A stretch of DNA of 64,000 bases from Blastocatellia bacterium (GTDB lineage Bacteria > Acidobacteriota > Blastocatellia > RBC074), in NCBI GenBank assembly GCA_046331565.1, contig JAXLQP010000001.1, positions 2,158,347-2,222,346 of the forward strand, read 5' to 3'. Positions within the stretch are counted from its first letter, which is position 1. Every line of letters begins with the position of its first letter. The position numbers were made by a program, and so were the translations under genes. The notes under the pieces are model-generated. The model saw only the letters and a list, made by a program, of their open reading frames with translations. It was not told where the DNA came from and did not search any database. Shown piece by piece: positions 8,984 to 17,485 of the stretch.

Positions 8984-9088
8984 GATGGAGTGCGGCGAGT
9001 TCTCGCCGCTTTGCGTTCGGGGGCCGGGTCTTCATGGCAGGCCGCACCGCTGAAAACGAAAGCGGTGACGAGTCACCGCACTCCACAT
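8984..9088. repeat. Palindromic element, family B, copy 1.
   Basis: Arms gatggagtgcggcgagttctcgccgcttt ... aaagcggtgacgagtcaccgcactccacatc. A second copy lies at 42166-42236. Confidence 0.6.
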
Positions 9089-9101: not shown

Positions 9102-9791
9102 TCAGAAAATGATGCCGACTGACAAACGGATGTTATCCTGCCGCTGACCTTCGAGCGTCACGGGTTGAATGGCGCCGGCGCTGCCCAGCACATTGATTGA
9201 ACGGTCGCGCAGGAAGACCGGCGCCCAGTCCACCTGCACCAGGCGCAGGCTGAATTTGTCGCCCAGCCTGACATTCACCCCGCCACCAAGCCCCATGGCA
9301 AAATCGGTCGTGCTGGTATCAAAGGAACTGGTGACTGTGCCATTCGTCACATTACGCACTGATTCAACATTGAAGTGGGTATTCGCGCCGCCGAACAACG
9401 CATGCACAAACGGCTCAATTCGGCTGGAATTGCGCAGCTTGAGTACCGGCCCGCCCATAAAATAAGTGACCCGGTGTTCCACCGAATCGCGCCCGTTGGT
9501 CACGGCAGTTGAATCCTCGTTGCGATGGAACGAGACATCACCCTTCAATCCGACGCCTGAATTAAAGAACCAGGAAAGAGAACCATCAACGCCGTGCAAT
9601 CCCTTGCGGCGATCAAAGAAATTGCTGTTGAAAACATTGGATGGATCGTTGCGATCAGGCACGCCTTCGGCCTGCAGGTTCGAGTAACCGATAAAAACTT
9701 CGGCGCGTTTGTCGCTGCCACTGCTGCTTTGCGCGAGCGCGGCGGTAGTCATCAGCATCAGACACACGGTCATAAGTAAAAGTTTGTTCAT
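9102..9791 (-). CDS. Outer-membrane beta-barrel protein (OmpW/OmpA-like small porin).
   Basis: Signal peptide MNKLLLMTVCLMLMTTAALAQ, alternating amphipathic beta-strand pattern, C-terminal ...SVGIIF. Confidence 0.6.
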   Translation of the reverse strand: MNKLLLMTVCLMLMTTAALAQSSSGSDKRAEVFIGYSNLQAEGVPDRNDPSNVFNSNFFDRRKGLHGVDGSLSWFFNSGVGLKGDVSFHRNEDSTAVTNGRDSVEHRVTYFMGGPVLKLRNSSRIEPFVHALFGGANTHFNVESVRNVTNGTVTSSFDTSTTDFAMGLGGGVNVRLGDKFSLRLVQVDWAPVFLRDRSINVLGSAGAIQPVTLEGQRQDNIRLSVGIIF

Positions 9792-10078: not shown

Positions 10079-11131
10079 TCAGCGAACGCCCTTCATCTTT
10101 TTGATGTAATCGCCATCCACGCCGTGAATCCGCAGTTTGACCAGATCATCGGCTGAAAGATTGCTGTATCCGGCCTCACGCATCTCGCGGACGAACTGCG
10201 GGCTGACGCCGTGAATGCGAAACTGCACCAGTTTGTCTGCTGACAGATTGCTGTAACCAAGCTCGCTCATCGCTTTGACGTATTCCGGTTTGACGCCGTG
10301 AATGCGAAAGGCGATCAGTTTATCTGCCGACAGGTCACTGTAACCGAGCGTCTTCATCTCTTTGATAAAGGCCGCGCTGACGCCGTGAATGCGAAAGGCG
10401 ATGAGTTTATCAAGCGGCAGCTTGTCATACCCGAACGATTTCATTTCGTTGATGAACTCTTCGCTGACGCCGTGAATGCGCAGCGCGACGAGTTTGTCAG
10501 CCGGAATGTCGCTGTAACCGAGCGCCCGCATTTTGTTCACAAACTCGGCATTGACGTTGAAGATGCGAAACGAGATCAGTTTGTCGAGCGAGAGCTTGTC
10601 ATAACCGAGCGATTTCATTTCGGCCATGAACTTCGTGCTGACATCGTGAACCGCCATCGTAAACAGCTTTTCAGTCGAAGGAGCCTCAAAGCCCATCTGC
10701 TGCAACTGCGCTGCAAATGATGCATTCGGCGCGAAGCGGAATTCACCGACGCCTTTGCCTTCGCTGAACAGCCCGTCAAAAGTGACCGAACCGGCTTCGC
10801 GGTTGAGCGAGAACTGCACCTTTGAATTTGCGTTCGGGTTGAGGCCGGTGAAATCAGCAAGCGGCACCTCAAAGCCCCACTGTGACCACCGCTTCCGGCC
10901 TTCGCGGTCTACGGTCAGCGAAAGGTAAAGCTGCGGCCCGCGATCAGTGTTTCTGACCTTCGCCGTCCAGTCACCGGCAATCGGTTCATTCGCATTCTGA
11001 GCGGCGCGGTACGGACGCGATAAACCAGCGGCCACGAGCAGCGCCACAACGACGATCATCATTTTTCGCATAACCTGTTCCCTTCTTGTCCGACAGGAAG
11101 ATTTCATCCACCAGGGCACACGAAGGTTCAC
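10079..11131 (-). CDS. Secreted protein with 6 tandem 29-aa repeats shared with the BlaR1-like transducer. Likely true start at signal peptide MRKMMIVVVALLVAAGL (about 11071).
   Basis: Repeats LSLDKLISFRIFNVNAEFVNKMRALGYSD / IPADKLVALRIHGVSEEFINEMKSFGYDK / ... / LSADDLVKLRIHGVDGDYIKKMKGVR. Period is 87 bp in the DNA. Confidence 0.6.
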   Translation of the reverse strand: MNLRVPWWMKSSCRTRREQVMRKMMIVVVALLVAAGLSRPYRAAQNANEPIAGDWTAKVRNTDRGPQLYLSLTVDREGRKRWSQWGFEVPLADFTGLNPNANSKVQFSLNREAGSVTFDGLFSEGKGVGEFRFAPNASFAAQLQQMGFEAPSTEKLFTMAVHDVSTKFMAEMKSLGYDKLSLDKLISFRIFNVNAEFVNKMRALGYSDIPADKLVALRIHGVSEEFINEMKSFGYDKLPLDKLIAFRIHGVSAAFIKEMKTLGYSDLSADKLIAFRIHGVKPEYVKAMSELGYSNLSADKLVQFRIHGVSPQFVREMREAGYSNLSADDLVKLRIHGVDGDYIKKMKGVR

Positions 11132-11143
11132 GAAGAAGAATCA

Positions 11144-11218
11144 GACAGGATTAACAGGATAAACAGGATATTTCTGGTTGAAACAGTTCTGTTTATCCTG
11201 TCTTTCCTGTAAATCCTG
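11144..11218. repeat. Hairpin whose arms are 3 tandem 9-bp units (AACAGGATA x3 / TATCCTGTn x3).
   Basis: acaggattaacaggataaacaggata ... tatcctgtctttcctgtaaatcctgt. Intergenic between the blaR1-like stop and the repeat-protein gene. Confidence 0.6.
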
Positions 11219-11280
11219 TCAAAAATCTTCGTGCTTCTTCGTGTGGCTTAGTGGATAAGAAATGTGACTGAATCAGCGGT

Positions 11281-13722
11281 TCATTTCTTCAGCAGGATTT
11301 CGTCAATCCCGCGCATTTTCAGTTCAATCAACTGATTCGCTGAAACGTTTTTGAATCCGGCGGCGCGCATCTTTCTGATGTAATCGCCGGTGACGCCGTG
11401 CATTCGCATTTTGATCAGTTCGTCCACGGTCAGTTTGTCAAAGCCTGCGTCGCGCAGTTCTTTGATCCAGTCTTCAGTGACACCGAACATACTGAGCCTT
11501 GTCAGTTGCTCAGCGGTCAGATTGCTGTACCCGTTGCGGCGCAGGGCTTCCATAAAGGCGGGCGTGACGCCGTGCATGCGCATCTTCGTCAGATCATCAG
11601 CCGACAGGTTGCTGAAACCCGCGCTGCGCATCTCTTTGATGTAATTTTCGGTGACGCCGTGCATACGCAGGCGGGTGATCTGTTCGGCGCTGAGATTGCT
11701 GTAGCCGTTCCTGCGCAGCGTTTCAATGTACTCAGGCGTGACGCCGGACATGCGCATCCGGGCGAGCGATTTCAGCGGCAGGTCGTAACCGGCCTTCTTC
11801 ATTTCGCGGATGTAATCAGGGCTGATGCCTGACATTTTCAGTTGCACCAGGTCGCTGACCGTCAGCTTTTCACCGGTCTGACTGCGCGCTTCTTTGATGA
11901 AATCTTCAGTGACGCCGTGCATTTTCAACTGTACGACTTCCCTGATTTGCAGGTTGTCGTAACCCATCCTGCGCAGCATTTCGATGTATTCGGGCGTGAC
12001 GCCGTACATCTTCAACTGCACAATGTTCTCAGCCGTCAGCGCAGTTGATTCGCCTTTGCCCTGCTGTCCTGATGACTGTGCCAGCCCGTCAGCGAGCGCC
12101 CGCTCCTGAACTTTCCGCATCTCTCTGTCCAGTTTCGTCGCAATCCTGACCTCAATCTTTTCTCTGACCTGTGCGAGTTCCTGCTGCAATTCCTGAGAGA
12201 TCATCTGCGAAGTTGATTCACGCGCAGCGCGCTGCGCCATTGCTGCGATTTCAGCCTGAAGCTTTCCGATTTCGCGCTGAATCCTTTTCACTTCGGCGGC
12301 GCTGATCTTTTCAGCCGCGCCCCTGGCCTGAAGTTCAGCCAGTTCTCTGATCTGATCATTCAGTTCCTGACGCTTCTCATCCAGATCAGCACGCAGTTCT
12401 TCGGCGCGACTCTGCTCATCTGCGATGGCATCAGCAGCTTCATCCTGCGCGGCTTCCAGGTCGCGGCTGTCTGCGGGTTCGGCGGACTGTGCAGGCTGTG
12501 GCGGCTGCGGCGGCTGTGGTTTGTTCCCGGGTTGCGGCGTATCAAGTGGCGCGGCGGATTTCTCTGCTTTCTGCTTCTCCTGCGCTGAAGCATTTGCCCA
12601 GGGCTGCAACGCCGCCAGCGGAATAATGAAGCTGACCACCGCGCAGGTGATCAGCGTCGTGATGCGTCGCGTCATGCGCTGGCGTCTGACAGCCGGATCA
12701 AGAATCGCCCGCACGCGGCTTTCAAGCTGTGAACAGGCCATCCCCACCGCGACCGGCGAAACAGAGCTGACATCACTCATCGCCCGCGCAATGTTCACCA
12801 GATAACCGGCGTAATCAGAAGCCCGTGTACCGACCTCCAGCACGTAATCATCACAGGCCAGTTCGCGTTCGACGCGCAGCCGTCGCGCGCCGATCCAGAC
12901 CAGCGGATTGAACCAGTACAACGCGCACGCCACCTGCGCCAGCAACTGCGTCAGACAATCGCGCCGCCTGATGTGCGCCAGTTCGTGCAGCAGCACAATC
13001 TGACGCCATTCAGCCGACCATTCATCAGCGTCATCAGGCAGCAGCACGACCGGACGCCAGATGCCCCACGTCATCGGCATCGTGACCTGATCGCTTTTGA
13101 GCAGGGGAATGTGCCTGTCCAGATCAAGCTGCATTGCCAGCCGCTTCACGATGGCCGACCAGGCGTAACCGGTCAGCACTTCGGCATCACGCGCAATGGC
13201 CCAGACCCTGATCAGGCTGACGGCCAGCCGCGCCAGCACGATGAATGCGCCCGTCAGCCAGACGAGCAGCACAAGCTGCGGCCACTGCACTGAAGGCGTT
13301 GCATTACTCACCTGTGACGGCGCGGCGCTGGCTGTCGGCGCTTCATCCTTCAGTTCCTGCGCGGAGTTTTCAACCAGTGGCGGATAAGTCAGCCGCTGAT
13401 CTGTCGGATCAGTCGCGCTCAGTTCGGCTACATCCACCGGCGCTGCAATATCTGATGATGCCTGCGCGGTCATCAGTTCAGGCAGCAGCGGCAACTGCCA
13501 GCCCGGCAGCGCCATTGACAGCACGGGCAGCGCGAGCAGACTGATGACGGCCAGCGTCCAGACCAGATGCCGCGTTGCCGCCGCCGCGCGCCGCAGCGTT
13601 ACCACCAGCAGCGCCGTTGCGACCAGAATCAGCGCGCCTTTAAGCGTCACATCCAGCAGCATCTGAAACCTGACAACCGGCAGCGACGACAGCGCAAAGA
13701 AAGCGGGCAGTGTGGTCATCAT
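11281..13722 (-). CDS. BlaR1-type M56 metallopeptidase signal transducer with a non-canonical sensor: coiled coil plus 8.5 tandem 29-aa repeats.
   Basis: TM helices, HEXXH motif HELAHIRRRD, further TM, P/Q-rich linker, E/K/A/Q coiled-coil-like 140 aa, then repeats LTAENIVQLKMYGVTPEYIEMLRRMGYDN ... No PBP/transpeptidase-like sensor. Confidence 0.75.
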   Translation of the reverse strand: MMTTLPAFFALSSLPVVRFQMLLDVTLKGALILVATALLVVTLRRAAAATRHLVWTLAVISLLALPVLSMALPGWQLPLLPELMTAQASSDIAAPVDVAELSATDPTDQRLTYPPLVENSAQELKDEAPTASAAPSQVSNATPSVQWPQLVLLVWLTGAFIVLARLAVSLIRVWAIARDAEVLTGYAWSAIVKRLAMQLDLDRHIPLLKSDQVTMPMTWGIWRPVVLLPDDADEWSAEWRQIVLLHELAHIRRRDCLTQLLAQVACALYWFNPLVWIGARRLRVERELACDDYVLEVGTRASDYAGYLVNIARAMSDVSSVSPVAVGMACSQLESRVRAILDPAVRRQRMTRRITTLITCAVVSFIIPLAALQPWANASAQEKQKAEKSAAPLDTPQPGNKPQPPQPPQPAQSAEPADSRDLEAAQDEAADAIADEQSRAEELRADLDEKRQELNDQIRELAELQARGAAEKISAAEVKRIQREIGKLQAEIAAMAQRAARESTSQMISQELQQELAQVREKIEVRIATKLDREMRKVQERALADGLAQSSGQQGKGESTALTAENIVQLKMYGVTPEYIEMLRRMGYDNLQIREVVQLKMHGVTEDFIKEARSQTGEKLTVSDLVQLKMSGISPDYIREMKKAGYDLPLKSLARMRMSGVTPEYIETLRRNGYSNLSAEQITRLRMHGVTENYIKEMRSAGFSNLSADDLTKMRMHGVTPAFMEALRRNGYSNLTAEQLTRLSMFGVTEDWIKELRDAGFDKLTVDELIKMRMHGVTGDYIRKMRAAGFKNVSANQLIELKMRGIDEILLKK

Positions 13723-14108
13723 CGTCCTTCCTTTCTGGCCTTTTCGATCAGTTGCGACAGGCGGTCGAGTTCCTCACGCGAAAGCTGGCGGCGGTTCAGA
13801 TCAAGCAGCGCCGCGACAGCCTGTTCGGTCGAACCGTCAAAGAATGTTTCAAGCAGCGACCGCATGGCCGATTTGCGGGCCTTTTCGCGCGCGAGCGTCG
13901 GCAGGTAAATGTACCGCTGTCCGTCCTGCTCGTGCCGCAGGTACCCTTTCTCTTCCATCAGTCGCAGCAGCGCCCGCACTGCCGAATAGCTCGGAGGATC
14001 GGGCAGGTTTTCCATGACTTCCTGCGCCGTCGCCTGCCCGCGCTGATGAATGATGTCCATAATCTGCCGCTCGCGGCGGCTCAGATGAAGATGGGCCTGT
14101 CTGGTCAT
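13719..14108 (-). CDS. BlaI/MecI/CopY-family transcriptional repressor.
   Basis: LSRRERQIMDIIHQRGQATAQEV...YSAVRALLRLMEEKGYL winged-helix; C-terminal dimerisation helix. Stop overlaps the blaR1-like start (ATGA). Confidence 0.8.
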   Translation of the reverse strand: MTRQAHLHLSRRERQIMDIIHQRGQATAQEVMENLPDPPSYSAVRALLRLMEEKGYLRHEQDGQRYIYLPTLAREKARKSAMRSLLETFFDGSTEQAVAALLDLNRRQLSREELDRLSQLIEKARKEGR

Positions 14109-14170
14109 AAGTTTCAGCCTGTTGCGCCCGCCTGCAGCCGGGCTGGTTTTGTCTGGTGCCGTTCCAAAGG

Positions 14171-14230
14171 TGCTAAAAAATTAGCAGCACCGGTGCAGGC
14201 TGTCAAGCCTTTAATGCTAAATTTTTAGCA
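14171..14230. promoter_or_regulatory. Two 16-bp dyads TGCTAA-N4-TTAGCA (14171-14186 and 14215-14230) in the divergent promoter region; putative BlaI-type operators.
   Basis: tgctaaaaaattagca and tgctaaatttttagca, centres 44 bp apart, 63-120 bp upstream of the repressor start codon. Confidence 0.4.
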
Positions 14231-14639
14231 GGCCGTCAGCCGCGCAGGCTGCACTGCTGAAAGGTACGATGCCGGGTGTCGGCAGGTTTGGAATTTATGA
14301 CGGCTTCAGCCCGAAACCGCCCTGGCCCCGGCCCTGCGCCCGTGCCTCAATAACGCCGCGTTCGCCCCTGAAGGATCGGCCTGACAACAGCGCAGGACAA
14401 TCCATCATTCAAATCCATCAGCTCGAAAGCGCGCTGATGCGCGCCGCGCCTCGTCAAAGCAATTTGTCCGGCGCGCCTTCCACACTTCGCCGCTTCAGGC
14501 ATATAATCCGGGCATCGAATTCAGACAGAAAAATCATTCCGGCAGATCGGATCGCCTGCGACACTGACTCGTCTTCCCGCACCATCAAAGACGGGCGAAC
14601 ATCTGCGCGAACAGCATCAGAGTTCAAGTGAGGACTGGG

Positions 14640-16322
14640 ATGAGACTCAGCAGATCGCTCCTTTGCGGGATTTTGTCGCTGCTGGCAGCGATGGCGAGTG
14701 TGGCTGTTGTGAGAGCGCAGGAAGAACATCAGCACGACCATCAGCACGACGCTTCAGAAAAACTCGGCCAGGTCAGCTTTCCTGTTTCCTGCAACGCCGC
14801 CACGCAAAAACAATTCAATCGCGCGCTCGCGCTGTTGCATTCGTTTCAGTATGTCGAAGCCGGGCAGGCCTTCGCTGAGATTGCCGCGCGCGAACCGTCA
14901 TGCGCGATGGCCGAATGGGGCGTGGCAATGAGCAATTATCATCCGCTCTGGACGCCGCCGACTGCGGCAGAGTTGCAGAAAGGTCGTGAGGCAATTGAAC
15001 GGGCAAAGGCGGCCCGCGCCCGAACGCAGCGCGAGCAGGATTACATTGCCGCGCTTGCGACGTTTTATCAGGACAGCGACAAACTCGGCCATTACGAACG
15101 CGCCCGCGCTTATGCCGCAGCGATGGAACGCCTGAGCCGTCGCTGGCCGCAGGATCGTGAAGCCGCCATCTTTTATGCGCTGTCGCTCAACGGCGCTGCG
15201 CCCGCGAGCGAAGGGAATCTGGCTAATCGCCGGAAGGCCGCGCAGATTCTGTATCGCATCTGGCCGCGCGAGCCTCGTCATCCCGGCATCGCGCATTATC
15301 TGATTCACAGCTACGACTATCCGCAACTGGCGCGTCTGGCGCTGCCAGCGGCGCGGCGTTACGCCAGGGTTGCGCCGTCATCGGCTCACGCGCTGCACAT
15401 GCCTTCGCACATCTTCACGCGACTCGGCTTGTGGGAAGATTCGATTCAGTCAAATCTCGCTTCGGCGGCCACCGCAAAGCAAAAGGCGAACAAAACTCAT
15501 CCGGGCGCAGCGTCGCAGGATCAGCTTCACGCCATGGATTATCTCGCCTATGCCTACCTGCAAACCGCGCAGGATGAAAAAGCGAAAAGCGTGCTGGCCG
15601 AAGCGCTGAATTACAGCACCATTGATCAGGAAGTCTTTCAGGCGGCGTATGCGTGGGCGGCGATCCCGGCCCGGCTGGCGCTCGAAAGACATCGCTGGTC
15701 TGAAGCCGCGTCGCTCACGCTGCATCCGGCCTCATTCCCCTGGCCGCGATTTGGTTTTGCCGAAGCAATCACCCATTTCGCGCGGGCGGTCGGCGCAGCA
15801 CGCAGCGGCGACGCGGCAACGGCCCGGCAGGAAGTTGACGAGCTGGCCCGCCTTCATCAGGCGCTCAGTGAAAATCGCAACGGTTATGACTGGGCCACGC
15901 AGGTTGAGATTCAGCGCCAGGCCGCAGCGGCCTGGCTGGCGCACGCCGAAGGCAGGAACGATGAAGCCCTGCCACTGCTGCGCGCGGCGGCGGCGCTCGA
16001 AGATACAACCGACAAGCACCCGGTCACACCCGGCGCAGTCCTGCCGGCGCGCGAACAGCTTGGCGATCTGCTCCTTGAACTGAAGCAACCGGCGCAGGCG
16101 CTGAAGGAATTCGAGACCGCGCTTCAGTTCGCGCCGGGGCGTTTCAATAGTCTTTACGGCGCAGCGCGAGCCGCTGAGTTATCGGGACAGATGAAGAAAG
16201 CACACGCGCATTACGCCAGTCTGGTCACAGTCTGCAAACACGCCGACCACGACCGGGCCGGGTTGCAGGCCGCGCGAACATTTCTGGCACACTCGCAGCG
16301 AATGACGGCAGGCGGGCGCTGA
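14640..16322 (+). CDS. Secreted all-helical (TPR-like) protein with a His-rich N-terminus. Hypothetical.
   Basis: Signal peptide MRLSRSLLCGILSLLAAMASVAVVRAQ, then EEHQHDHQHD. Helical repeat character. Divergent from blaI. Confidence 0.5.
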   Translation: MRLSRSLLCGILSLLAAMASVAVVRAQEEHQHDHQHDASEKLGQVSFPVSCNAATQKQFNRALALLHSFQYVEAGQAFAEIAAREPSCAMAEWGVAMSNYHPLWTPPTAAELQKGREAIERAKAARARTQREQDYIAALATFYQDSDKLGHYERARAYAAAMERLSRRWPQDREAAIFYALSLNGAAPASEGNLANRRKAAQILYRIWPREPRHPGIAHYLIHSYDYPQLARLALPAARRYARVAPSSAHALHMPSHIFTRLGLWEDSIQSNLASAATAKQKANKTHPGAASQDQLHAMDYLAYAYLQTAQDEKAKSVLAEALNYSTIDQEVFQAAYAWAAIPARLALERHRWSEAASLTLHPASFPWPRFGFAEAITHFARAVGAARSGDAATARQEVDELARLHQALSENRNGYDWATQVEIQRQAAAAWLAHAEGRNDEALPLLRAAAALEDTTDKHPVTPGAVLPAREQLGDLLLELKQPAQALKEFETALQFAPGRFNSLYGAARAAELSGQMKKAHAHYASLVTVCKHADHDRAGLQAARTFLAHSQRMTAGGR

Positions 16323-16405: not shown

Positions 16406-17485
16406 ATGTCAGCAGAAGCAGCAACTCAGACATTTGACGAAGCCAGACTGAACAAGTTGATGCAGCAGGCGGTGGTGGATTTCGGCGCAGTCTTTCACGC
16501 GGCGATGGTCAACATCGGCGACAGGCTGGGCATCTACAAGGCAATGGCCGGAGCGGGGCCGCTCACTTCGGCGGAACTCGCAAAGCGCACCGGCCTGGCT
16601 GAACGTTACGTGCGCGAATGGCTGGCCTCGCAGGCGGCGGGCGGTTATGTGGATTACGACGCACAAACCGGGTGTTATCAGCTCAGCCCGGAACAGGCCT
16701 TTGCGCTCGCTGATGAAAACAGCCCGGCCTTTCTGCCCGGCGCGTTTCAGGTGGCCACCTCAGCCATCAGGGCCGAGGGCAAAATCACTGAAGCCTTTCG
16801 CACCGGCGATGGCGTCGGCTGGCACGAACACGATCCGGGTCTGTTTCACGGCACTGAGCGATTCTTCCGGCCCGGTTATGCCGCCAACCTGATCAGTGCG
16901 TGGATTCCCGCGCTTGACGGAGTTGAAGCGAAGCTGAAAAAGGGCGCGCGGGTGGCCGATGTCGGTTGCGGGCACGGCGCGTCAACAGTGCTGATGGCGA
17001 AGGCGTATCCGGCCTCAACGTTTGTCGGCTTCGATTATCACGAACCTTCGATCAGGTACGCCCGCGATGCGGCGGCGCAGGCAGGCGTGGCTGATCGCGT
17101 GCAGTTTGAAGTCGCCAAAGCAAAGGATTATCCGGGCCGGGATTACGACTTCGTGACCTTCTTTGACTGCCTGCATGACATGGGCGATCCGGTCGGCGCG
17201 GCGGCGCACGTGCTTGAAACACTCAAACCCGACGGGACGTGGATGATCGTGGAGCCATTCGCCAACGATCAGGTTGAGCAGAACCTCAATCCGGTGGGCC
17301 GGGCCTTTTACAGCGCGTCAACGCTGATCTGCACACCGGCCTCGCTGTCGCAGGAAGTCGGCCTGGCGCTCGGCGCGCAGGCCGGTGAAGCGCGTTTGCG
17401 CGAGGTCGTCACCAGAGGCGGCTTCACGCGCTTCCGGCGCGCCACCGAAACGCCCTTCAATCTGGTGCTGGAAGCCAGACCATAA
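16406..17485 (+). CDS. Class I SAM-dependent methyltransferase (O-methyltransferase-like with N-terminal winged-helix dimerisation domain).
   Basis: Motif I VADVGCGHGAS, acidic D at end of beta-2 (GFDYHE), DVVFFDCLHD-like motif. Confidence 0.7.
   Translation: MSAEAATQTFDEARLNKLMQQAVVDFGAVFHAAMVNIGDRLGIYKAMAGAGPLTSAELAKRTGLAERYVREWLASQAAGGYVDYDAQTGCYQLSPEQAFALADENSPAFLPGAFQVATSAIRAEGKITEAFRTGDGVGWHEHDPGLFHGTERFFRPGYAANLISAWIPALDGVEAKLKKGARVADVGCGHGASTVLMAKAYPASTFVGFDYHEPSIRYARDAAAQAGVADRVQFEVAKAKDYPGRDYDFVTFFDCLHDMGDPVGAAAHVLETLKPDGTWMIVEPFANDQVEQNLNPVGRAFYSASTLICTPASLSQEVGLALGAQAGEARLREVVTRGGFTRFRRATETPFNLVLEARP

Follow-up and report, generated by a model that had tools for sequence, protein, structure and literature searches.

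Regulated proteolysis of the BlaI/BlaR type is a textbook mechanism of beta-lactam resistance, and to our knowledge the C-terminal extracytoplasmic domain is the input in every BlaR-type protein that has been characterised. Here we describe a three-gene module, R-T-S, that retains the regulatory frame of such a system with a different domain at the input position. It lies in a stretch of 64,000 nucleotides (64 kb, hereafter the window) from a soil genome of the Blastocatellia (Acidobacteriota) and consists of three open reading frames (ORFs) on the minus strand. R is a repressor of the BlaI family, T a membrane-bound M56 metalloprotease ending in a tandem array of a 29-residue repeat, and S an exported protein with a second array of the same repeat. 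With a probability that we put at about 0.7, the locus is an autoregulated BlaI/M56 module in which the array of T is the periplasmic input and S is a co-regulated exported paralog of that input.

The closest described systems are BlaI-BlaR1 and MecI-MecR1 of Staphylococcus aureus and Bacillus licheniformis. In common with them, the locus has a PF03965 repressor translationally coupled to a four-span M56 protease with an HExxH motif, two dyad operators at the promoter of a seemingly autoregulated operon, a C-terminal extracytoplasmic input and, as we propose here, an output that is related to the sensor in what it recognises. In contrast to BlaR1 and MecR1, T is devoid of a penicillin-binding/transpeptidase sensor and instead carries a predicted alpha-solenoid of 29-residue units on a long stalk. 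Furthermore, the operator half-site is TGCTAA rather than TACA, the Asn-Phe (N-F) dipeptide of BlaI and MecI is not kept in R, the host is of the Gram-negative type, and an exported paralog of the sensor takes the place of a beta-lactamase or penicillin-binding protein as the output. R and T thus belong to the PF03965 and M56 families, but T lacks the sensor domain that defines BlaR1 and MecR1 proper.

M56 proteases with inputs other than a beta-lactam sensor are already established. A 2026 survey of about 15,000 M56 proteins found a transpeptidase domain in only some 6% of them, and the largest class had no identifiable C-terminal domain (PMC13492132). In Synechocystis, the BlaI/CopY-type repressor PetR, which has a very small regulon, is degraded by the BlaR-type membrane protease PetP on a non-antibiotic cue, copper (bioRxiv 10.1101/2020.07.31.226407). 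Hence, when the first-pass annotation of the window described the input domain of T as completely different, this was right with respect to the missing penicillin-binding sensor, but such a departure is not unusual among M56 proteins. PetP itself differs from T in having neither a repeat array nor an exported paralog, and we found no evidence of metal sensing for R-T-S. Another likeness is to the CenI-CenR pair of Clostridioides difficile, a BlaIR-family pair without a domain that binds beta-lactams and with a proposed role in the cell envelope, where an exported protein whose gene lies 215 bp downstream is the most strongly induced member of the regulon (PMC13492132). However, the C-terminus of CenR is short and predicted to be disordered, and CDR_0474 is unrelated to CenR, whereas in R-T-S the C-terminus of T is a repeat domain predicted with confidence to be folded, with a paralog of it as the exported protein downstream; the two systems also differ in phylum and in the type of envelope. 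Finally, the M56-TonB_C fusions of Bacteroidota and other Gram-negatives share with T the combination of an M56 protease, a proline-rich spacer and a periplasmic C-terminal domain, in their case for protein interaction. TonB_C (PF03544) is absent from T in a Pfam search, and we know of no paralogous secreted partner of these fusions.

The features on which the argument draws are the following, given as positions in the window in the direction of transcription.

14215-14230: predicted operator dyad 1, TGCTAAAAATTTAGCA (TGCTAA-N4-TTAGCA), just upstream of the -35 box
14201-14206, minus strand: predicted -35 box TTGACA of the R-T-S promoter, read from the sequence
14171-14186: predicted operator dyad 2, TGCTAATTTTTTAGCA (TGCTAA-N4-TTAGCA), overlapping the -10 box
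14178-14183: predicted -10 box TAATTT, separated from the -35 box by a 17-nt spacer
13719-14108, minus strand: R, winged-helix repressor of the BlaI/MecI/CopY family, 129 residues (PF03965)
11281-13722, minus strand: T, M56 zinc-metalloprotease transducer with four transmembrane (TM) spans and a C-terminal repeat array, 813 residues (PF05569)
12973-12987, minus strand: HELAH zinc-binding/catalytic motif of T, residues 246-250, aligned to HEYAH of S. aureus BlaR1
12847-12870, minus strand: ERELACDD, the downstream acidic motif of M56 proteins, residues 285-292 of T, aligned to the NEVEADRF region of BlaR1 (8exs)
12607-12663, minus strand: TM4, the last membrane span of T, residues 354-372, by hydropathy and the positive-inside rule
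12058-12606, minus strand: predicted periplasmic stalk of T by composition, P/Q-rich in residues 373-419 and A/E/Q/R-rich in residues 420-555
11284-12039, minus strand: repeat array of T by the repeat hidden Markov model (HMM), 8 units plus a C-terminal partial unit ending in GIDEILLKK
11100-11258, minus strand: palindrome or RNA hairpin between T and S, minimum free energy -78.8 kcal/mol, z = -10.6
10079-11071, minus strand: S, signal peptide, SN domain and 7-unit array, 330 residues, by sequence, HMM and AlphaFold
10997-11071, minus strand: Sec-type signal peptide of S, MRKMMIVVVALLVAAGLSRPYRA, with the predicted cleavage site (hydropathy and sequence) directly before AQ
10682-10996, minus strand: SN domain of S, a six-strand beta domain of about 105 residues kept in all S-like proteins
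10082-10678, minus strand: repeat array of S by the repeat HMM, 7 units

The family assignments of both regulators agree with the first-pass annotation, which had seen a BlaI-family repressor overlapping an M56 transducer of the BlaR1 type with a HELAH motif and no penicillin-binding sensor. R matches PF03965 (Penicillinase_R) in Pfam with E = 2.3e-30 and 105.7 bits against a gathering cut-off of 22.6, and it aligns end to end (residues 8-123) to MecI (1sd6; E = 6e-5). Its best NCBIfam match is CopY/TcrY at 5e-16, below the cut-off (TIGR02698 scores 59 against 122), and the CopY-type metal site CxCx4-5CxC is absent from R, which contains zero cysteines. The stop codon of R (TGA, 13719-13721) and the start codon of T (ATG, 13720-13722) share an ATGA overlap. 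T matches PF05569 (Peptidase_M56) over residues 22-340 with E = 1.7e-41, and its closest solved relative is S. aureus BlaR1 (8exs). A public assembly encodes a 100% identical copy of T (P0121). Searches of Pfam and NCBIfam at E <= 1 gave no match to the transpeptidase domain PF00905 or to a beta-lactamase domain in T, and the NCBIfam model blaR1_generic reaches 117 bits against a cut-off of 400, on the protease part only (profile positions 103-338).

By hydropathy, the membrane spans of T lie at residues 25-43, 53-71, 150-168 and 354-372. The loop 44-52 is short and basic, the loop 72-149 (L2) is acidic with 2 K/R against 10 D/E, and the protease loop is rich in K/R. From this four-span layout with its acidic L2 and basic protease loop, the topology would be that of BlaR1, such that everything beyond residue 372, including the array, should be periplasmic. 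Loop charges and span number in T, together with the signal peptide of S, thus support the earlier proposal that both arrays are extracytoplasmic. The stalk segment of residues 420-555 is probably helical or coiled-coil. It is followed by units starting at residues 562, 591, 620 (a unit of 28 residues), 648, 677, 706, 735 and 764 and a partial unit of 21 residues, which agrees with the 8.5 copies behind a stalk that had been counted before; each unit scores 36-57 bits against the repeat HMM. In orthologs, the array of T is kept position by position, down to the 28-residue third unit, the ARSQTGEK of the second unit and the C-terminal GIDEILLKK, and it is therefore a fixed domain rather than an expanding array.

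Both arrays belong to one definable repeat family. The consensus of the unit is L-[TS]-x-[DE]-x-L-x2-[ML]-[RK]-[IM]-H-G-V-T-P-E-[YF]-[IV]-x2-M-[RK]-x-[AL]-G-[FY]-x-N, with an RIHGV core that hardly varies among S-type units (R 94%, I 97%, H 96%, G 93%, V 94%) and looser in T-type units, of which 47% keep the histidine (H12). HMM searches gave no match for the repeat in Pfam-A 2025, NCBIfam 2026 or the PDB sequences, in line with the earlier remark that it was not recognised as a named domain. DUF4473, LYTB, HHH_5 and WHIM1 were rejected as candidates, since their matches were sub-threshold noise. Neither T nor S has a Pfam match of the helix-hairpin-helix (HHH) type; sub-threshold HHH_5 matches of 19-28 bits occur in some homologs, with no single stretch that is significant alone. 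A search of 1.84 billion proteins with a three-unit profile yielded 4,409 representative clusters (50% identity) at E <= 1e-3 and 3,223 at E <= 1e-10. The best 139 new representatives comprised 110 M56 fusions, 28 S-like proteins with an SN domain and one fragment, and even in the longest repeat proteins (up to 1,188 residues) M56 was still the sole other domain detected. The repeat thus appears essentially dedicated to the M56/SN system. The usual array size is 8-9 units for M56 proteins and 7-9 for S-like proteins.

We therefore propose a family, the "M56-associated 29-aa repeat", and its "SN" partner, defined as tandem units fused to an M56 or SN domain within an operon of the order blaI - M56-repeat - SN-repeat and described by the pattern L-x4-L-x3-[RK]-[IM]-H-G-V-[TS]-P-E-[YF]-[IV]-x2-[ML]-[RK]-x2-G-[YF]. 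The locus in the window has the features of this definition. Two new domain-family definitions, one for the repeat and one for the SN domain, would be justified. Neither the repeat nor the R-T-S trio was described in the literature that we searched. What is new here is a definable and widespread repeat domain that seems dedicated to M56 proteins, an exported paralog as its obligate operon partner, and a conserved dual-operator promoter.

With respect to the fold, the AlphaFold2 model of S (pLDDT, predicted local distance difference test, 93; pTM, predicted template modelling score, 0.83) has a six-strand beta domain followed by helical hairpins. In the model of the T array (pLDDT 90, pTM 0.73), each unit consists of two 9-residue helices with a turn of 4 residues (H-G-V-T) and a loop of 7. 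Foldseek against the PDB returned nothing significant except a designed repeat protein. The nearest structural analogues are probably the TALE, BurrH (Bat) and mTERF repeats, which are tandem two-helix units that form a superhelical solenoid, as the present units may also do, and which share with them an H-G-[LV]-T-P-E turn between units. We treat the likeness as an analogy, the sequence evidence for a relationship being mixed. A single-sequence phmmer comparison with TALE chains gave 5e-6, a value inflated by summing over repeats and obtained with a 5-residue insertion per unit; hhalign against a single TALE consensus sequence gave a probability of 86%; and neither the three-unit profile search of PDB sequences nor Pfam produced a TALE or TAL-effector match. 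The unit of 29 residues with two 9-residue helices differs from the 33-35 residues with a long kinked second helix in TALE and BurrH. In contrast to TALE, there is no hypervariable di-residue, the loop residues being kept position by position. In addition, TALE and mTERF bind DNA in the nucleus, cytoplasm or organelles, whereas the arrays described here are predicted to be exported. They would add an exported member to the short-unit alpha-solenoid folds that are otherwise known from nucleic-acid binders.

The description of S required several revisions. The first-pass annotation had placed the gene at 10079-11131, but the start is almost certainly the ATG at 11071 and not the GTG at 11131, because this codon is preceded by an AAGGGA ribosome-binding site and is kept in the related loci L003 and L001. 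The signal peptide has no lipobox cysteine. What had been taken for a unique N-terminal domain of 190 residues is the SN domain, which is considerably shorter and conserved throughout the S-like family; its matches to PAS, GAF, avidin and lipocalin-like folds are all weak, and a search with the SN domain alone (27 candidates) added only short SN-type fragments. Instead of six repeat copies, the HMM detects seven, namely one degenerate unit (residue 152), five full units and one that is C-terminally truncated. The 87-bp period that had been noted at the DNA level holds for S, where Tandem Repeats Finder detects it at 10139-10622, but not for T, the units of which have diverged at that level.

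The trio recurs well beyond the window. Eight loci were fetched through M56-repeat relatives (L001-L004 and L009-L012; 34-93% array identity), and in all eight the order is BlaI, M56-repeat protein and S-like protein with a homologous SN domain. Scanning for the degenerate motif R-I-H-G-V-T-P-E-F added 120 metagenome loci, mostly from JGI (Joint Genome Institute; Ga-numbered) assemblies. Among these, an S-like gene lies directly downstream of 40 of 41 M56-repeat genes, the remaining one being within 1.6 kb, and blaI lies upstream in all 31 cases that could be determined. When both sets are pooled, the figures are 48 of 49 for the S-like gene and 39/39 for blaI. Such recurrence in dozens of environmental genomes argues that this is a real, uncharacterised envelope-signalling module and not a one-off arrangement. 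The closest genome match is the Blastocatellia metagenome-assembled genome DATMAG010000025.1 (93% identity over the T array). Named homologs fall into the Acidobacteriota (Blastocatellia, Chloracidobacterium, Thermoanaerobaculia, Polarisedimenticolaceae), with one in Ca. Eiseniibacteriota.

A third sub-type (L007, 5818-9029; the contig of P0119; L133, 1-1449) keeps the order of the trio while combining BlaI with an M56 protein of short array and a membrane-anchored S-like protein. The M56 protein has 592-597 residues, a Pro-rich stalk and about 3.5 degenerate units; the S-like protein has 342 residues, an N-terminal membrane anchor and 8 units, and its gene begins at the base right after the M56 stop codon. 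Elsewhere, the spacing between T and S is 36-170 bp across related loci, and in L012 the two genes overlap by 4 bp. The short gaps and this overlap argue for co-transcription and hence for S being part of the operon.

S-like genes also occur without the regulators. Of the 67 S-like genes in the metagenome set whose flanks are long enough to judge, 11 stand alone and the other 56 are linked, and further stand-alone genes are found in L005, L006 and L008, with no M56 or BlaI gene within 8 kb. This indicates that S has a function of its own and favours a role as a binding protein over that of a mere cofactor of T. In these three independent contigs (L005 4604-9038, L006 4619-9170, L008 4519-9173), the stand-alone gene lies directly 3' of Amidase_3 - GerMN - RNase PH, a block that in L005 and L006 is followed by Ham1/RdgB. 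It is possible that this neighbourhood hints at a peptidoglycan-related role, or that it reflects lineage synteny.

Which neighbours belong to the unit can be judged from L003, a relative with 93% identity. Downstream of S in the window, 287 bp away on the same strand, lies a gene for an OMP_b-brl outer-membrane beta-barrel (9102-9791, minus strand). Divergent from R is a gene for a secreted TPR protein of 564 residues (14628-16322, plus strand) with the His-rich N-terminus QEEHQHDHQHD. Both genes are missing in L003, and the beta-barrel gene is not kept next to the trio in other loci either, such that we discount both as parts of the module. The conserved unit therefore is R-T-S, and its only conserved non-regulatory product is S.

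The promoter is conserved along with this unit, a feature that the first-pass annotation did not contain, nor did it contain the stand-alone S-like genes. Allowing for up to one mismatch, TGCTAA-N4-TTAGCA occurs twice in the window against an expectation of 0.04. Exact dyads of this type lie upstream of blaI in 8/8 related loci and in 0/4 loci without T, and the arrangement of the promoter does not differ among the related loci. TTGACA sits between the two dyads at the same position in L001, L002, L009, L010 and L011 as well as in loci of a second type, found in a broader clade, where TACGAA-N4-TTCGTA occurs twice at equivalent positions around TTGACA (25 of 30 loci among L013-L132, e.g., L043, L051 and L075). 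A family-wide TGCTAA operator can thus be ruled out, as it is absent from 29 of these 30 loci, which use TACGAA. The unchanged layout of the TACGAA dyads indicates that the half-site changes together with the repressor within a constant architecture. In the broader clade, only about 10-15 nt separate the end of the second dyad from the ATG, hinting at transcripts that lack a leader or are very short. On account of the conserved two-dyad promoter, we predict that the operon is autoregulated, with S as its only conserved output.

Taken together with the T topology, this layout leads us to infer a mechanism, in which the topology, the binding of R to its operators, its cleavage by T, the nature of the ligand and what S does are all deduced. 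R dimers would bind both TGCTAA-N4-TTAGCA dyads and repress the operon. T would reside in the inner membrane, the M56 zinc-protease domain on the cytoplasmic side and the stalk and solenoid (8 full units and the partial one) in the periplasm. A cue from the envelope or the extracellular space would engage the solenoid and activate the protease, upon which R would be cleaved and inactivated. The operon would then be derepressed and S be made, as the sole conserved product besides the regulators. The array of S may recognise the same ligand as that of T, S being an inducible periplasmic binding, buffering or protective factor that closes a negative feedback loop. This last part, that S binds or buffers the cue of T, is a tentative proposal to which we would give somewhat less than even odds. 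It draws on the parallel with the BlaR1 sensor and the induced BlaZ and PBP2a, which all recognise penicillin, and it is supported by the stand-alone S-like genes and by the layout of CenIR with its exported protein just downstream.

Several points weigh against this mechanism or parts of it. The cleavage site of BlaI and MecI is an Asn-Phe in the dimerisation domain, which we take to be N101-F102. No N-F dipeptide is found in R, where the region aligned to the MecI site reads AVAALLDLNRRQ. Because this dipeptide is not kept, cleavage of R is assumed rather than evident, though the site may differ in distant family members. The array of T begins near residue 557 in the orthologs P0122-P0124, as in T itself, but near residues 451-464 in shorter T-like proteins of about 700 residues (P0128-P0136) and near residue 494 in the M56 protein of L007. 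The long helical stalk thus is clade-specific and for this reason not essential to the mechanism. With respect to the operator, no third dyad exists in the 64 kb window even when one mismatch is allowed, so that a wider regulon is not seen there; the search spanned this window, and regulon members may lie elsewhere in the genome. The very stable hairpin between T and S could attenuate or uncouple the expression of S. Finally, the mirror-tree correlation between the arrays that is described below is not corrected for shared phylogeny, and two repeat arrays of the same type may simply evolve at similar rates.

As for the part played by S, a possible alternative, which we consider a minority option, is that S is a partner of the sensor itself. 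Its array would dock onto that of T, solenoid to solenoid, either as a titrated inhibitor following the logic of CpxP-CpxA or as a ligand-loaded co-sensor following that of periplasmic binding proteins. The near-obligate adjacency of S directly downstream of T speaks for such a partnership, and so does the third sub-type, in which a membrane-anchored S-like protein beside an M56 protein of about 3.5 units suggests that the main array can be supplied in trans. In a mirror-tree comparison over 43 loci, the arrays of T and S co-diverge with r = 0.93, while the array of T and its own M56 domain reach 0.71; the lengths of the two arrays correlate modestly (Spearman 0.43, p = 0.004). However, co-inheritance explains this co-divergence equally well, and the correlation attests to co-inheritance at least without being proof of physical co-evolution. 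The stand-alone S-like genes, with no M56 or BlaI gene nearby, also argue against an obligate partnership. The arrays of T and S are old paralogs, being 31-41% identical within a locus, while orthologs between loci are 40-94% identical. Concerted evolution or recent duplication is ruled out, since the identity within loci is no higher than that between them. The first-pass annotation had named as contrary evidence a known domain without linkage to M56 or BlaI genes, or a lack of co-occurrence between S and T; we find tight linkage to both gene types, and T and S co-occur and co-diverge.

It is unlikely, in our estimate, that the array merely anchors or scaffolds T, for instance by binding the cell wall or the outer membrane, and that the membrane part or the acidic L2 loop receives the signal instead. 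An array that is fixed in length and kept position by position behaves like a structural domain, as expected for an anchor, and the Pro-rich and helical stalk resembles tethers that span the periplasm, such as TonB. TonB_C moreover ranks second in frequency among the C-terminal domains of M56 proteins (PMC13492132), and the stand-alone S-like genes adjoin an Amidase_3/GerMN pair in 3/3 contigs. On the other hand, this synteny includes rph and rdgB and so may be mere lineage synteny, no LysM, SPOR, PG_binding or OmpA match to a peptidoglycan-binding domain was detected, and the anchor would be at odds with the role of the C-terminal extracytoplasmic domain as the input in the characterised BlaR-type proteins.

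A more speculative proposal, which we hold to be quite improbable, takes the likeness to TALE further. The 29-residue unit would be an ancient exported relative of the polymer-reading repeats of the TALE/BurrH type, and the superhelix of 7-9 units in T and S would wind around a linear polymer outside the cytoplasm, for instance extracellular DNA, a glycan strand of peptidoglycan or an exopolysaccharide. If true, T would be the first protease of the BlaR type to be gated by the binding of a polymer, and S would be an inducible protein that binds or shields the polymer.

Least probable by our reckoning is a ladder of metal-binding histidines, one per R-I-H-G-V motif, that would make the locus a metal-responsive BlaI/CopY-type switch like cyanobacterial PetR/PetP: the conservation of H12 in S-type units, the CopY/TcrY match of R, the copper-dependent degradation of PetR and the His-rich TPR protein divergent from R are compatible with it, but the histidine sits at a helix C-cap before the invariant Gly, as in the "HG" turn of TALE, and is probably structural, it is often missing from T-type units, clusters of Cys or Met are absent, as is a CxC motif in R, and the TPR gene is absent from L003.

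Returning to the array of T as a periplasmic input with S as its co-regulated exported paralog, the module is of wider interest since the inputs of most M56 proteases have not been identified. R-T-S offers a tractable case, in that the array is predicted with confidence to be folded and forms a family definable by sequence with about 4,400 clusters at 50% identity, the promoter and operators can be read from the sequence, and purified S, being a soluble paralog of the sensor, could serve as bait for the ligand. The Acidobacteriota in which it is found are among the most abundant and least understood soil bacteria.

Some further observations concern the arrays and the surroundings of the trio. 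The palindrome between T and S, of about 150 nt, is built from 9-mers of the ACAGGAT type and occurs once in the window; L003 has a related palindrome at the equivalent place, and L001 partly so. The element might act in attenuation, in processing or in stabilisation, or else be a small repeat that was inserted. Downstream of S, a terminator-like site is seen at 9062-9079 and none between S and the beta-barrel gene, such that the latter could be co-transcribed with S in this genome. On the other side, L003 keeps beside the trio only the adjacent methyltransferase gene (16406-17485 in the window) and not the TPR gene. In L010 (9548-12692), a second M56 gene (581 residues, no repeats) and a PF00144 beta-lactamase-family gene come after the trio on the same strand. 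In L011 (8626-11158), two or three short ORFs with an SN domain (166-236 residues, 0-2 repeat units) stand in place of the full S-like gene downstream of the M56-repeat gene; the same holds for P0383 and P0393, which share their 133 kb contig with P0223. Many T-type arrays have a super-repeat of three units, in which a Q/A-x-W-G-x-x-K loop takes the place of A-G-[FY]-x-N in each third unit. This points to an ancient duplication of 87 residues, of which a trace is seen in the T of the window only in unit 2 (ARSQTGEK).

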